Positions 24,958-35,171 of a stretch of 64,000 bases of DNA are shown here, one piece after another. A program made the translations under genes and the position numbers. The stretch's first letter is position 1; every line of letters starts with the position of its first letter. The notes beneath the pieces were generated by a model. That model was not told the origin of the DNA. It was given only the letters and a program-made list of their open reading frames with translations, and ran no database searches. Origin of the DNA: a bacterium BMS3Bbin05 (GTDB lineage: Bacteria; Nitrospirota; Thermodesulfovibrionia; Thermodesulfovibrionales; BMS3Bbin05); NCBI GenBank assembly GCA_002897855.1, contig BDTO01000053.1, positions 45,205 through 109,204 on the forward strand. The letters run 5' to 3'.

Positions 24958-25377
24958 GTGGACAATGATATAAGAAACGAATTTGAAAAAGGTACGGCCA
25001 AACCTTATAATATCTTACCCCACTCGTTCCCCTTTGTGATGCTGGATAAGGTTTTGGATGTAGAAAAAGGCCGAAGGGGAAAAGGGGAAAAACTCGTAAC
25101 CTGTGATGATTACCCGGGAAGGGGAGATATGTTCCCACAGGTATTGCTTCTTGAAGCATCTGCTCAATTGTCGGGGATTGTATCGGGCAGAGAGGAGGGT
25201 GGGTACTTGGCGGGAATGAAGAATATCCATTTCGAAAAGAATGTGATGCCGGGTGATGTTGTCGAGTTCGAATCAGTAATGCAGGGGGTCTTTGGTGGAA
25301 TGTACATCTTCAGGGTATCGGCCAGGGTGGGGAACGAAACTGTGATGAAAGGGGATATATATCTTGCGCTGGCATGA
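24958..25377 (+). CDS. FabZ/FabA-like hotdog-fold protein (atypical active site)
   Basis: 139 aa, GTG start with GGAGGTGG upstream. ILPHSFPFVMLDKVLDVEKG and LLLEASAQ align with FabZ LPHRFPFLLVDRV and LILEAMAQ. The GHFPG histidine segment is replaced by the shorter DDYPGRGDMFPQ. Confidence 0.7.
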   Translation: MDNDIRNEFEKGTAKPYNILPHSFPFVMLDKVLDVEKGRRGKGEKLVTCDDYPGRGDMFPQVLLLEASAQLSGIVSGREEGGYLAGMKNIHFEKNVMPGDVVEFESVMQGVFGGMYIFRVSARVGNETVMKGDIYLALA

Positions 25378-25504
25378 AAGCAACGAAAAGATCAGGTTCT
25401 GTGAGGTCGATTCCTTTGGCGTGATATGGCATTGCAACTGCGTGATGGTCCCTGAAGTACTGAAACAGAAACTGAGAGAGATGCCGGCCTGTTGTCATGG
25501 CTGA
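25364..25504 (+). pseudogene. possible N-terminal stub of a 4HBT/YbgC-type acyl thioesterase
   Basis: A 46-codon frame too short for the track: (L)RWHESNEKIRFCEVDSFGVIWHCNCVMVPEVLKQKLREMPACCHG*. Its D-x2-G-x3-H-x2-(Y/C) spacing matches YbgC EDTDAGGVVYHARY. It stops inside the first codons of the exporter gene. Confidence 0.35.
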
Positions 25505-32950: not shown

Positions 32951-34243
32951 TTACTTGACAGCTCCTTTTTCTTTCAATACAGCGCTGGTCCATGCGCCAG
33001 CGTCATATTCTAACATTTCTCCCTTCTTCAGGGGGAAGCATGCCATTGTCTTTACTACGGGACCTTTGTCCGAGTCTTCATATTCGGCCGGATAAAATGA
33101 TTTCCATGCATCCGTATAACCCTCGTAAAGTTCATCCGGTGTCATGCATGTCGGCCTGAAAACAACCTTCGATGTGGTGTATTCGGAAAAGTCATTTGTC
33201 AGAAGCCGTTCCTGGGAGTTCAGCCTGTCATAGAGTCTGCTGTTAGGGTATGGAGTAAGGATATGGAACTCCGCTTCCTCCAGTTCATGTTTTTTTGCAA
33301 ATTCTACTGTTCTTTCAAAAATATCCTTTTCGTCGTGATCAAACCCGAATACGAAAGAAGCGATTATCTTGATATCATTGTCGTGGATTCTCTTAATGTA
33401 ATCCCCTGCCTTTTTTGCCTGGACTCCGTCGATGACCTCGTTAAGGCTTGCGGATATCCAGGGGCTCAGGTCTACATACATGGCCCAGCAGTTGCTCTTT
33501 CTTATCAGCCTGAGGAAATCCATGTCTTCGGCAATCATGAGCGGCGCCAGGCCGACCCACTCTTTCGTGCTATTTTCCAATGCATTAAAGAAGGGCCTTG
33601 TCCTCCGTTTTGCGAGATGCAGATTATCATTTACTATGAAAACGTATCTGTCAAGCTTTTCTATCTCGGCAATGAGGGTATCAATACTGCGCATCCTGAA
33701 AGTGGTGCCAAAAGTCTGGGGGACCGAACACATGTCGCAGTTAATCGGGCATCCCCTTGATACCTGGATCGAGTTTATCGGCATATACCCCTTGCCATTA
33801 CAGATAATATCCCATCTTGGGAAAGGGACCTCGATCGGCGGATTTTTGCATTTATATATCTTTTTCAGATTCATGCTGATGAAGTCCTCAATAACCCTTT
33901 CCCAGATGCCTTCGGCCTCGCCTATGACAATGGCATCTGCATGTTTTATTGCATCATCAGGAGCAAGAGAGACATGGACTCCTCCGAGGATAACGGGTAT
34001 GCCCAGTGCCCTGTATCGATCGGCTATCTCATATGCCCTGTTCGCCTGGGGGGTCATCAGTGATATTCCCACAAGGTCCGCATCATCTTCAATTTTGAGG
34101 GGTTCTATGCGTTCATCCACAAAGGATATTTCCCAGTCGTCCGGTGTAAGTGCGGCAATTGTGGCCATACCCAGCACAGGTATGTATCTTCTGTATATCA
34201 GGGGGAAATGCCCCCATTCAGGGAAGATCAGTTTAAGTTTCAT
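32951..34243 (-). CDS. B12-binding-domain radical SAM enzyme, paralogue 2
   Basis: 430 aa. DLVGISLMTPQANRAYEIADRYRALGIPVILGGVHVS and VSRGCPINCDMC. Colinear with paralogue 1. Confidence 0.85.
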   Translation of the reverse strand: MKLKLIFPEWGHFPLIYRRYIPVLGMATIAALTPDDWEISFVDERIEPLKIEDDADLVGISLMTPQANRAYEIADRYRALGIPVILGGVHVSLAPDDAIKHADAIVIGEAEGIWERVIEDFISMNLKKIYKCKNPPIEVPFPRWDIICNGKGYMPINSIQVSRGCPINCDMCSVPQTFGTTFRMRSIDTLIAEIEKLDRYVFIVNDNLHLAKRRTRPFFNALENSTKEWVGLAPLMIAEDMDFLRLIRKSNCWAMYVDLSPWISASLNEVIDGVQAKKAGDYIKRIHDNDIKIIASFVFGFDHDEKDIFERTVEFAKKHELEEAEFHILTPYPNSRLYDRLNSQERLLTNDFSEYTTSKVVFRPTCMTPDELYEGYTDAWKSFYPAEYEDSDKGPVVKTMACFPLKKGEMLEYDAGAWTSAVLKEKGAVK

Positions 34244-35171
34244 TACCGGTTTCCTTTTTGTCTTTTAACCAGAAGGGCATGAATGTATACCACTGGTCGG
34301 GATATTTTCTTATATATTTTTCAAATATAGGGATGATATCACTGAGGTTCCTGCCAAGCGTCTCGGCCCTGTTAGAGTATACTTTTATACTAATCGGTTT
34401 TTCAATATAAATATTGTAGATATTATAACCCTCCATTATCACAAAGGCCGGGAGTATAACGGCGTCAGCAGCGGATGCAAGCATTATCGGGCCCTTGGGA
34501 AACCGAGCCTTGTGTCCGAACATTTCCATCTCAATGCCCCTGTCGTACTGCAGCCTGTCTCCCTGTATGGCGACCGCACCCCCTTCCTGAAGAATACGGA
34601 GAAGCTTGATGGAACTGAATCTGCCCGCCCCGAGTTCAACGTGTCTGATATTGCAAATACTCCTGAACCGGTTTCTCTGGCTTTCTATTATGTCCTGACT
34701 GTCCGGAAAGTAAACGATCGTAGGTGTAATGCCTGTCTTTGCGAGCTTAATGCCCCCTATCTCCCAGTTTCCCATATGGAGTGTAAGCAGTATAATGCCG
34801 TGTCCGGAGCCAATAGCTTCGTTCATGTTTTCCTCGCCGACGGTATTGATCCTGAATGATTTTATCCTGTCCTTTCCATGACTCAAATAGAAAAGGTCAA
34901 TAAGATACCAGGCGTATTTCAGAAACGTCCGGAACGCCAGGAACGAGGTGTAAAAACTGCCTTTGTCCGGGAATATTATCCTCATATTTACACGAACCGA
35001 CCTGTAATTCGCCACATTGAAACAGATGAAAATAAGAGAAAAGAAAATGGCGGTAAATCTCATGAACCACCTTGGAAGTATTTTTGATGCATATTTGAAT
35101 GCAAGAATGAGTGATTTGAAGAAGAAGTTACGCTGGTGTTTTCTGAAAACACTTTTTGCCTCTGCATGCAT
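34233..35171 (-). CDS. LpxL/HtrB-family lysophospholipid (lipid A-type) acyltransferase
   Basis: 312 aa with an N-terminal TM and LTLHMGNWEIGG (the HxxxxE acyltransferase motif of this family). It overlaps the next gene by 11 nt. Confidence 0.8.
   Translation of the reverse strand: MHAEAKSVFRKHQRNFFFKSLILAFKYASKILPRWFMRFTAIFFSLIFICFNVANYRSVRVNMRIIFPDKGSFYTSFLAFRTFLKYAWYLIDLFYLSHGKDRIKSFRINTVGEENMNEAIGSGHGIILLTLHMGNWEIGGIKLAKTGITPTIVYFPDSQDIIESQRNRFRSICNIRHVELGAGRFSSIKLLRILQEGGAVAIQGDRLQYDRGIEMEMFGHKARFPKGPIMLASAADAVILPAFVIMEGYNIYNIYIEKPISIKVYSNRAETLGRNLSDIIPIFEKYIRKYPDQWYTFMPFWLKDKKETGNET

Follow-up and report, generated by a model that had tools for sequence, protein, structure and literature searches.

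The stretch of DNA analysed here (64,000 nucleotides of contig BDTO01000053.1 from the Nitrospirota bacterium BMS3Bbin05, hereafter the window) holds at positions 24958–35171 a locus in which three radical S-adenosylmethionine (rSAM) enzymes are encoded together with proteins for the acylation, glycosylation and export of lipids. Two of the three enzymes are B12-binding (B12a and B12b), while the third combines an rSAM core with a SPASM/twitch-like C-terminal region (rSAM/SPASM). Their partners are a FabZ-like hotdog dehydratase, an MMPL-type exporter, a family 2 glycosyltransferase (GT2), an acyltransferase of the LPLAT family, a LolB-like and a DUF4410 lipoprotein, and a small secreted protein. 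No synthase core accompanies them, and the question is whether this absence is an intrinsic mark of a new kind of pathway, as a preliminary description made from the sequence alone had supposed, or the outcome of a loss. The evidence was found to favour a loss. With moderate confidence, the locus is regarded as a reduced form of a product-orphan lipid cluster conserved among anaerobic bacteria, of which the tailoring, attachment and export module has been kept: scars of a loss are visible in the window, and its relatives carry the missing genes.

Open reading frames (ORFs) were called in 166 related loci and clustered, and the clusters were labelled by Pfam and NCBIfam. Loci with an rSAM/SPASM protein 62–83% identical to that of the window are referred to as Nitrospirota-type loci; about 10 kb of flanking sequence is visible in them. 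The closest relatives with visible flanks, L004 and L166 (rSAM/SPASM identity of 83% and 81%, respectively), possess the genes of the window in an identical arrangement. Ahead of the hotdog gene, both loci add an intact 4HBT thioesterase, a PP-binding acyl carrier protein (ACP), an adh_short FabG-like ketoreductase (KR), an Acyl_transf_1 FabD-like acyltransferase (AT) and two further B12-binding rSAM enzymes. An extra B12-binding rSAM of L004 is a true member of TIGR04072 (387 bits, cut-off 360). The same ACP/KR/AT block is joined on the LPLAT side instead in L007, L088 and L167, so that five Nitrospirota-type loci display ACP, KR, AT, an intact thioesterase and extra B12-binding rSAM genes contiguously. 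The TIGR04072 cut-off is also passed in L027 and L011, and L007 stays slightly under it with 354 bits. Apart from rSAM/SPASM, the identity between the window and L004 amounts to 77–78% for B12b, 74% for B12a, 66% for both GT2 and the hotdog protein, 64% for LPLAT, 56% for the exporter over its full length and 49% for the LolB-like protein. The preliminary description had named a core of ketosynthase (KS) and ACP genes regularly present in orthologous loci as a sign of loss, and this is largely what was observed, with ACP, KR and AT in the five loci above and at least one of ACP, KS, KR or AT in 33 of 58 more distant loci.

In the window itself, tblastn with proteins from the related loci detected no KS, ACP, KR, AT, polysaccharide deacetylase (PDA) or ATP-grasp gene in the 64 kb, and no AMP-binding domain was found with Pfam among the window ORFs scanned. 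The lack of a synthase core in or near the locus was thereby confirmed across the whole window. The short ORF initially called a thioesterase stub is indeed one, namely the remnant of a deleted 4HBT gene. Its homology is confined to the first ~23 residues (74% identity, tblastn), and nucleotide alignment with L004 and L007 showed that the first ~75 nt are kept, followed by an internal deletion of ~290 nt. The 8-nt overlap of the remnant with the start codon of the exporter gene is kept, as in L004. A frameshifted remnant of an AAA-family ATPase gene, ending in ...WLFGFLY and a stop, separates the FabZ-like gene from a class IV aminotransferase gene. Its concatenated 78 aa match annotated plasmid 'AAA family ATPase' genes over 100% of the length (E 9e-14 to 1e-10, tblastn), and it represents the scar of a rearrangement on the left side of the locus. 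Pfam gave zero matches on either remnant. When the rSAM/SPASM proteins were placed in a neighbour-joining tree, the window fell within the clade of L004, L086 and L166, the members of which carry the block wherever their flanks are visible. Given the ~290-nt deletion in the thioesterase gene, the ATPase remnant at the left junction and this nesting, the missing block is, on the sequence record, a derived and lineage-specific deletion.

Such a deletion could also have left behind useless genes heading to pseudogenisation, in a locus which makes nothing. The thioesterase remnant and the ATPase pseudogene at the junction would agree with decay, as would the absence of a TIGR04072 enzyme and of an ACP from the 64 kb and the FabZ-like gene without cognate ACP. 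However, the remaining ten genes, spread over 10 kb, are full length compared to their orthologues and show neither frameshift nor stop. The catalytic motifs are kept as well, i.e. CX3CX2C in all three rSAM enzymes, HX4E in LPLAT, and His and Glu in the hotdog protein, and similar block-less loci persist in other lineages. Non-synonymous divergence (dN) between the window and its L004 orthologues was 0.10–0.58, while synonymous divergence (dS) was saturated for eight out of nine genes, and therefore neither selection after the deletion nor a recent relaxation of it can be judged from these values. Taken together, decay of the whole locus is considered improbable.

What is invariant among the Nitrospirota-type loci is a triad of LPLAT, B12b and rSAM/SPASM genes, which was found in this order in every one of the 13 loci with sequence extending that far. 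In most of them the triad is followed by the LolB-like gene and a convergent B12a gene, while the part with GT2, exporter and hotdog genes is variable. Co-conservation of the two gene sets, on which the preliminary description had relied, thus holds for the triad wherever sequence is available and for B12a in most loci, but not for GT2, exporter and hotdog. No KS was detected in any Nitrospirota-type locus, even with 10 kb of flank visible. The fullest of these loci, L167 (positions 1073–13369), comprises five B12-binding rSAM genes and rSAM/SPASM together with DUF2062, ACP, KR, AT and hotdog genes; six radical SAM enzymes with no KS within 10 kb are unusual in themselves.

The invariance of the triad, the only part shared by all Nitrospirota-type loci, gives some weight to another interpretation. 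Triad, LolB-like protein and B12a could form a self-sufficient remodelling module working on ordinary chains or on existing membrane or outer-membrane lipids, which would be radically modified and then re-attached, the chain-building block being optional. In L006 and L008 the triad occurs with no block and no gene resembling fatty acid synthase (FAS) within the visible flanks (the neighbours in L008 being cellulose-synthase genes, DUF502 and an Ap4A phosphorylase), KS is missing throughout, and block-less loci, namely L006, L008 and the window, are scattered over at least three places in the tree. Against this, the lineage of the window clearly had the block, as the thioesterase deletion remnant and the nearest relatives tell, the block could lie elsewhere in the block-less genomes of which 10 kb of flank is seen, and Desulfobacterota embed the same protein families in complete KS/ACP clusters. 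An autonomous module of this kind is therefore thought unlikely, although it is the most serious of the alternatives and the form in which most of the preliminary idea would survive. A bolder form of the same idea, in which triad, LolB-like protein and B12a would be a KS-independent machine alkylating or cross-linking ordinary acyl chains during their transfer onto an outer-membrane-bound glycolipid, is a rather doubtful proposition. If true, it would represent a new lipid-remodelling system across anaerobic Nitrospirota and Desulfobacterota, from which orphan sedimentary lipids with heavy methyl branching might originate.

The identity of the genes retained in the reduced cluster was established at the family level by ORF calling and by Pfam and NCBIfam profile searches (Table 1). 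All eleven features initially described were recovered at their positions, and the profile annotation agreed with the gene content proposed for them. None of the proteins of the locus reached the cut-off of a curated NCBIfam equivalog. The genes form two tightly packed convergent sets, a plus set (24958–30907) and a minus set (30871–35171). The 3' ends of the B12a and LolB-like genes overlap by exactly 37 nt (30871–30907), and the identical overlap was seen in L004, L008, L166 and L167, relatives with 71–83% identity. Consequently, one stretch of DNA encodes the last 12 codons of both B12a and the LolB-like gene, and no space is left for terminators between the sets. Overlapping transcripts are predicted from this arrangement.

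Table 1. Features of the locus and of its surroundings, with positions in the window and the supporting evidence.
Feature	Position	Strand	Length	Evidence and remarks
AAA-family ATPase remnant, frameshifted, C-terminal ~80 residues	24610–24844	+		three-frame reading
FabZ/FabA-like hotdog dehydratase	24958–25377	+	139 aa	PF07977, 31 bits; first gene of the plus set
4HBT (YbgC-type) thioesterase remnant	25364–25504	+	46-codon ORF	tblastn and nucleotide alignment
MMPL/HAE3-type RND exporter	25497–27842	+	781 aa	PF03176, 81 bits
GT2, polyprenyl-phosphate-sugar synthase type (Dpm1/PpgS/AglJ/ArnC-like)	27859–28530	+	223 aa	PF00535, 86 bits
Small secreted protein, no family	28535–29020	+	161 aa (ORF)	signal peptide; probable start ATG 28568
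DUF4410 lipoprotein	29017–29625	+	202 aa	PF14366, 72 bits; lipobox IISC
B12a, B12-binding rSAM	29630–30907	+	425 aa	PF02310, 44 bits; PF04055, 54 bits; CPYGCSFC
LolB/LolA-like lipoprotein	30871–31671	-		probable start 31626; lipobox LFSC; sub-threshold profile matches
rSAM/SPASM, rSAM enzyme with N-terminal five-helix domain and twitch-like C-terminal region	31595–32950	-		PF04055, 84 bits; PF13186, 35 bits
B12b, B12-binding rSAM	32951–34243	-	430 aa	PF02310, 52 bits; CPINCDMC
LPLAT, LpxL-PatA family acyltransferase	34233–35171	-	312 aa	PF03279, 89 bits; first gene of the minus set
ZapB-like protein	35403–35732	+		
ZapA	35735–35998	+		
nuo (NADH:quinone oxidoreductase) operon, complete-looking	41298–55425	-		ordinary; no link to the locus found
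FadL/TodX-type outer-membrane channel	61201–62574			ordinary; no link to the locus found

Of all proteins of the locus, the rSAM/SPASM enzyme is the most highly conserved. An identical protein is already on record for a Nitrospirota MAG. Relatives were found in at least 592 species-representative genomes in a scan with one genome per species, and identity across phyla is 41–58%. Across 155 family members the CX3CX2C motif and three additional cysteines (C331, C350 and C391) are invariant, while C353 is present in ~52%. As just three extra cysteines are invariant, the C-terminal region is considered twitch-like with one auxiliary cluster and not a seven-cysteine SPASM domain. The original assignment as a SPASM/twitch enzyme is thus upheld by PF13186, but only in its twitch form. 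In the AlphaFold2 model (pLDDT 87.9), a five-helix domain (residues 1–102) precedes the rSAM barrel. This predicted bundle carries the invariant residues Y45, I49, H60, P61 and Q89, contains no beta-strands and gave no match in the PDB. It is confined to family members associated with lipid clusters. Homologues which lack this N-terminal helical domain of ~70 residues but are still ~50% identical occur in Actinomycetota (L064, L071, L073, L075, L076, L082 and L084) and Spirochaetota (L077, L078 and L080). Of 16 homologues without the domain, 14 lie beside thrS-infC-pheST with no lipid genes, and those of Actinomycetota sit between thrS and infC-rpmI-rplT-pheS-pheT. A second role linked to housekeeping is possible for the family.

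Sequence, profile and fold searches in the PDB returned for rSAM/SPASM only generic rSAM neighbours, namely SuiB, SkfB, anSME, BlsE, PqqE and viperin. With these enzymes and MoaA it shares the CX3CX2C core and a C-terminal auxiliary-cluster region. Identity to SPASM/twitch enzymes of known structure is ~16–22% with a TM-score of at most 0.52, and the window family differs from them by its three invariant auxiliary cysteines and its own N-terminal five-helix domain. GDGT-MAS/Tes matched on the rSAM core only (24 bits, TM-score 0.40), and on this comparison with GDGT-MAS/Tes an assignment by homology as a Tes/Mss-type tail-to-tail coupling enzyme was rejected. The enzyme reaches no NCBIfam equivalog, and likewise none of the three rSAM enzymes reaches the cut-off of any characterised NCBIfam family, which supports the preliminary description on this point.

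The best neighbours by sequence and fold (SkfB, SuiB, anSME and PqqE) are maturases of ribosomally synthesized and post-translationally modified peptides (RiPPs), and the B12-binding rSAM enzymes match RiPP methyltransferase models weakly. It was therefore considered whether one SPASM-type and two B12-type rSAM enzymes could modify a ribosomal peptide exported by the RND pump. These similarities are generic, however, with identities of ~20%, TM-scores not above the value given and scores far under the family cut-offs. The N-terminal domain is predicted to be an all-helical bundle instead of the winged helix of a RiPP recognition element, the genes abut or overlap so that a precursor gene would not fit into the locus, and a protease and an ABC exporter are absent. 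The partners are consistently lipid enzymes (LPLAT, GT2, ACP, KS, KR, AT, thioesterase, LolA/LolB). With no precursor gene, no recognition element and these neighbours, the peptide interpretation was discarded, and its probability is taken to be close to negligible.

Both remaining rSAM enzymes fit class B, the cobalamin-dependent one, by their B12-binding domain and CX3CX2C motif, an assignment read from sequence features. B12a scores 64 bits with TIGR04072 (cut-off 360) and reaches no NCBIfam cut-off; its orthologues are 62–74% identical in Nitrospirota loci, and homologues with 38–40% identity are present in Geobacter-type clusters. B12b is a paralogue (~35% identical to B12a), orthologues of which were seen in Nitrospirota-type loci only. 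It scores 46 bits with TIGR04072, again with no cut-off reached, and 24.6 bits with PF04055, under the threshold of 29.5, yet its CX3CX2C motif is readable.

Weak matches of B12a and B12b to HpnJ (76 and 70 bits, cut-off 578) and to HpnR invite a comparison with hopanoid tailoring, a system composed of HpnH (rSAM), HpnI (glycosyltransferase), HpnK (deacetylase), HpnJ (B12-binding rSAM for ring contraction) and HpnN (RND exporter). The exporter of the window has its best NCBIfam match with HpnN (TIGR03480), but with 202 bits against a cut-off of 752 it is HpnN-like and not an HpnN orthologue. What the locus and its relatives share with the hopanoid system and with the archaeal calditol synthase Cds (PMC13459092) is a logic: a hexosamine placed on a lipid by a glycosyltransferase, a deacetylase (in the relatives), an rSAM rearrangement of the head group and transport of the lipid to the outer membrane by an HpnN-like RND pump. 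The difference lies in the scores, all far under cut-off (for HpnH 43 bits against 225), and in the fatty-acid-type partners. No squalene-hopene cyclase or other hpn gene was found in the window with Pfam. Given these scores and the absent shc gene, the hopanoid interpretation was rejected.

The LPLAT protein carries the HX4E motif as HMGNWE and matches the PIM acyltransferase model with 99 bits (cut-off 209) and that of lipid A lauroyl acyltransferase with 89 bits (cut-off 248). For GT2, the top NCBIfam models were PpgS (117 bits), AglJ (112 bits) and ArnC, all under cut-off. These matches to lipid A lauroyl and PIM acyltransferases on the one hand, and to PpgS and ArnC on the other, raise the possibility of an envelope glycolipid decoration in the manner of Arn and NaxD/FlmF2, in which LPLAT and GT2 would modify lipid A or a different glycolipid of the envelope and the rSAM enzymes would alter the sugar or a secondary acyl chain. 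Relatives add a polysaccharide deacetylase beside GT2 (PDA-GT2 pairs in 21 related loci), and the L005 and L010 clusters adjoin bamA-skp-lpxD-fabZ-lpxA-lpxI. Yet the LPLAT and GT2 scores are far under cut-off, an ArnT-type GT-C transferase is absent from the locus, and the lpx adjacency is limited to these two related loci. Lipopolysaccharide is exported by the MsbA/Lpt route, of which neither an MMPL pump nor LolA/LolB-like carriers are part. Decoration of lipid A is accordingly seen as quite improbable.

The other products were assigned as follows. The hotdog protein keeps the catalytic His (LPHSFPF) and Glu (LLEASAQ) motifs and matches FabZ of NCBIfam with 74 bits, under cut-off; its orthologue in L004 lies directly downstream of the ACP gene. 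For the small secreted protein nothing was found in Pfam or NCBIfam, and homologues occur in the Nitrospirota-type loci L004, L006, L007 and L167. DUF4410 proteins also adjoin B12-binding rSAM genes in L005, L006, L010 and L059. The LolB-like protein stays under threshold with DUF4292 (19 bits, cut-off 23) and LolB1_Flavo (22.5 bits, cut-off 50), and a PDB search returned only lipoprotein-sorting proteins, weakly (E 0.4–0.7). It is homologous to the protein following the rSAM/SPASM gene in deltaproteobacterial loci and to LolB of Geobacter-type clusters. A homologue in the Geobacteraceae locus L055 (~24% identical, tblastn) passes the Pfam LolB cut-off (34.9 bits, cut-off 23.7), and members of the family match LolB at 2e-8 and, in the case of two homologues other than that of L055, LolA_like at 2e-6.

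Beyond the Nitrospirota-type loci, full-length rSAM/SPASM homologues with 41–60% identity, mostly from Desulfobacterota, usually lie in lipid clusters. Among the 58 loci with adequate flanks, neighbours were a B12-binding rSAM in 38, GT2 in 29, LPLAT in 24, and polysaccharide deacetylase and KS in 21 each. The association of rSAM/SPASM with LPLAT, GT2 and B12-binding rSAM genes, for which a survey had been suggested, is therefore recurrent. In 29 of 136 related loci, the gene directly preceding rSAM/SPASM is a GT2 of the same family as in the window, often with translational coupling of the two, and in 17 LPLAT follows directly. The Geobacter-type order reads PDA-GT2-rSAM/SPASM-LPLAT-ACP-B12-(B12)-AT-TE and, after the thioesterase (TE), B12(TIGR04072)-KR-KS-KS-DH-LolA2-like-LolB or MMPL, where B12 denotes a B12-binding rSAM and DH a dehydratase. 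In L055 the B12-binding rSAM after the thioesterase belongs to TIGR04072 (387 bits). The carrier of the Geobacter-type locus matches LolA2_flexi with 57.9 bits, under the cut-off of 125, while a LolB protein passes the Pfam threshold. The dehydratase of related loci matches ApeP-like and ApeI-like models. An AMP-ligase was not among the frequent neighbours in the related loci, which do have KS pairs.

Two variants of these clusters were noticed. In ten Desulfobacterota loci (L011, L013, L014, L016, L017, L021, L026, L029, L033 and L035), rSAM/SPASM is flanked by ATP-grasp, BcrAD/BadFG-type activase ATPase and DUF2229/HGD-D-like (2-hydroxyacyl-CoA-dehydratase-like) proteins, which suggests an additional radical dehydration step. 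In L005 (positions 1–11392) and L010, the order is KS, ACP, cyclase, polyketide cyclase, FMN reductase, amidohydrolase, two amine-oxidase/phytoene-desaturase-like genes, DUF4410, a TIGR04072-like B12-binding rSAM (336 bits), LPLAT and rSAM/SPASM. The desaturase-like genes of these two loci recall the Kuenenia and Desulfotalea clusters.

Clusters of this type have been on record since 2009. Type II fatty acid synthesis (FASII) clusters with radical SAM, glycosyltransferase and polysaccharide-deacetylase-like genes were described in Kuenenia stuttgartiensis, and similar ones were pointed out in Desulfotalea, Geobacter and Pelobacter, although ladderanes were not found in Desulfotalea (Rattray et al., 2009; PMC2649909). 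When the Kuenenia genes were expressed in a heterologous host, no product was obtained (PMC4790861). 'Ladderane' calls of biosynthetic gene clusters in Desulfobacterota and other non-anammox phyla lack an assigned function (PMC9902471), and in a 2026 review of lipid-modifying rSAM enzymes the ladderane-pathway enzymes are still unassigned (PMC13459092). The marker of such ladderane-type FASII/multi-rSAM clusters (kuste3335-3352 in Kuenenia) is TIGR04072, a lipid biosynthesis B12-binding/radical SAM protein. Membership of the window in this cluster family follows from orthology and gene context: TIGR04072-type clusters, which hold ACP, KR, AT and thioesterase and, in the Desulfobacterota versions, two KS, contain orthologues of its rSAM/SPASM, LPLAT, GT2, hotdog, exporter and LolB-like genes. 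A glycosyltransferase with a polysaccharide-deacetylase-like gene is also part of the Kuenenia cluster as published (PMC2649909, PMC4790861). The window differs by the absence of TIGR04072, ACP, KR, AT and KS and by a thioesterase reduced to a remnant, and it lacks a phytoene-desaturase-like gene, a SAM methylase and a phenylacetyl-CoA ligase. The Nitrospirota version as a whole departs from this type by having no KS and by its lineage-specific B12b within the triad. The locus is thus a cut-down copy of a cluster type already known and not a new kind of pathway.

A further comparison concerns aryl polyenes. Their accessory module consists of ApeD (LPLAT), ApeJ (GT2), ApeI/P (dehydratases), ApeK (thioesterase), ApeM (MMPL) and ApeL/N (LolA-like). 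The resemblance of the window to this and to the flexirubin module, which had been pointed out in the preliminary description, was borne out at the family level: Pfam recovers LPLAT, GT2, hotdog and MMPL, with a lipoprotein probably of the LolA/LolB fold and the thioesterase remnant beside them, and the LolA2_flexi match of the relative given above agrees with it. In contrast, the window has no KS/chain-length factor, ACP, KR or aryl-acid AMP-ligase, and it has three rSAM enzymes where aryl-polyene clusters are not known to have any. The ancestral core of the locus is FASII-like with B12-binding rSAM enzymes, TIGR04072 among them, while that of aryl polyenes is an aryl-primed type II polyketide synthase. 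Degradation of an aryl-polyene locus, the alternative considered at first, does therefore not describe the window. A full-text literature search gave no papers joining aryl polyene, radical SAM, LolA, acyltransferase and glycosyltransferase, and nothing specific turned up on B12-binding rSAM and FAS in Desulfobacterota. The earlier statement that no characterised pathway is known to have this composition still stands.

The reduced cluster probably serves for the radical tailoring and sugar-linked acylation of a glycolipid and for its export to the outer membrane. Radical tailoring followed by export had already been proposed and is still the most reasonable general reading, but not as a new pathway without core. 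The substrate, each chemical step and a continued activity of the reduced locus are deduced from the gene assignments and are accordingly worded as a proposal. In the full cluster, an acyl chain would be built on the dedicated ACP, altered by several cobalamin-dependent rSAM enzymes and passed to the attachment and export module. GT2 would supply a lipid-linked hexose or hexosamine, to which the relatives would add the action of a deacetylase, and LPLAT (LpxL/PatA-type) would transfer the acyl chain onto a sugar hydroxyl or a lyso-lipid acceptor, as do its nearest models PatA and LpxL. For B12a and B12b, C-methylation of unactivated chain carbons is most likely, and another cobalamin-dependent radical rearrangement less so. 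The twitch-type rSAM may act on the head group of the GT2 product or on an acylated intermediate, by analogy with HpnI-HpnK-HpnJ and Cds, for which the logic of glycosyltransferase, deacetylase and rSAM is established (PMC13459092). The HpnN-like MMPL pump and the LolB-like and DUF4410 lipoproteins would bring the product to the outer membrane. As the chain-building block (ACP, KR, AT, thioesterase and TIGR04072) is deleted in the window, any activity depends for its acyl chains on housekeeping FAS or on an unlinked copy of the block.

Several points weigh against the view of the locus as a working remainder of a dedicated lipid cluster. Without TIGR04072 enzyme and ACP, and with a partnerless FabZ-like gene, it may be inactive. 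The repeated occurrence of block-less loci in the tree fits a self-standing module as well. By its lack of KS in any locus seen, the Nitrospirota version differs from those of Geobacter and Kuenenia, and it may build no special chain at all. The enzyme family is not exclusive to the lipid cluster, given the short homologues beside thrS-infC-pheST. We infer that the antiSMASH 'ladderane' clusters (PMC9902471) are the same clusters as those considered here. Finally, the parent cluster type is product-orphan even in cultured Geobacter and Desulfotalea.

The surroundings of the locus were analysed for completeness. According to Pfam searches on the flanks and on the rest of the window, the remainder of the 64 kb holds housekeeping and regulatory genes only, including feoB, argG, dprA, topA, an ABC system, a TrmB regulator, the class IV aminotransferase, zapB/zapA, a GAF protein, a hybrid kinase, the nuo operon and the FadL-like porin. 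An ORF of 114 aa beside LPLAT (35336–35680, minus strand) belongs to no family and is probably spurious, since zapB and zapA occupy the plus strand there. On the LPLAT side, comparison with L004 and L166 gave just paralogue-level kinase matches, and no shared neighbours are claimed. A promoter scan between 24400 and 35900 gave 31 promoter-like sites where 19.5 +/- 4.3 were expected, the top plus-strand match lying inside the FabZ-like ORF, and is uninformative on the operon structure; the terminator scan of the same region was at chance level.

Genome mining of anoxic environments regularly labels FAS clusters with cobalamin-dependent rSAM enzymes as 'ladderane'; outside anammox bacteria these clusters are product-orphan (PMC9902471, PMC13459092). 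What the present analysis adds is that a highly conserved twitch-type rSAM from an uncharacterised family recurs in these clusters, that in Nitrospirota this enzyme, an LpxL/PatA-type acyltransferase and a lineage-specific B12-binding rSAM make up an invariant triad, and that the tailoring and export module can be separated from the chain-building block. The window offers a natural 'minus-core' variant for comparison, yet being truncated it is not the best exemplar. Of more value than the window copy are the conserved rSAM/SPASM family and the triad of LPLAT, B12-binding rSAM and rSAM/SPASM, both of which emerged from the comparison of loci.

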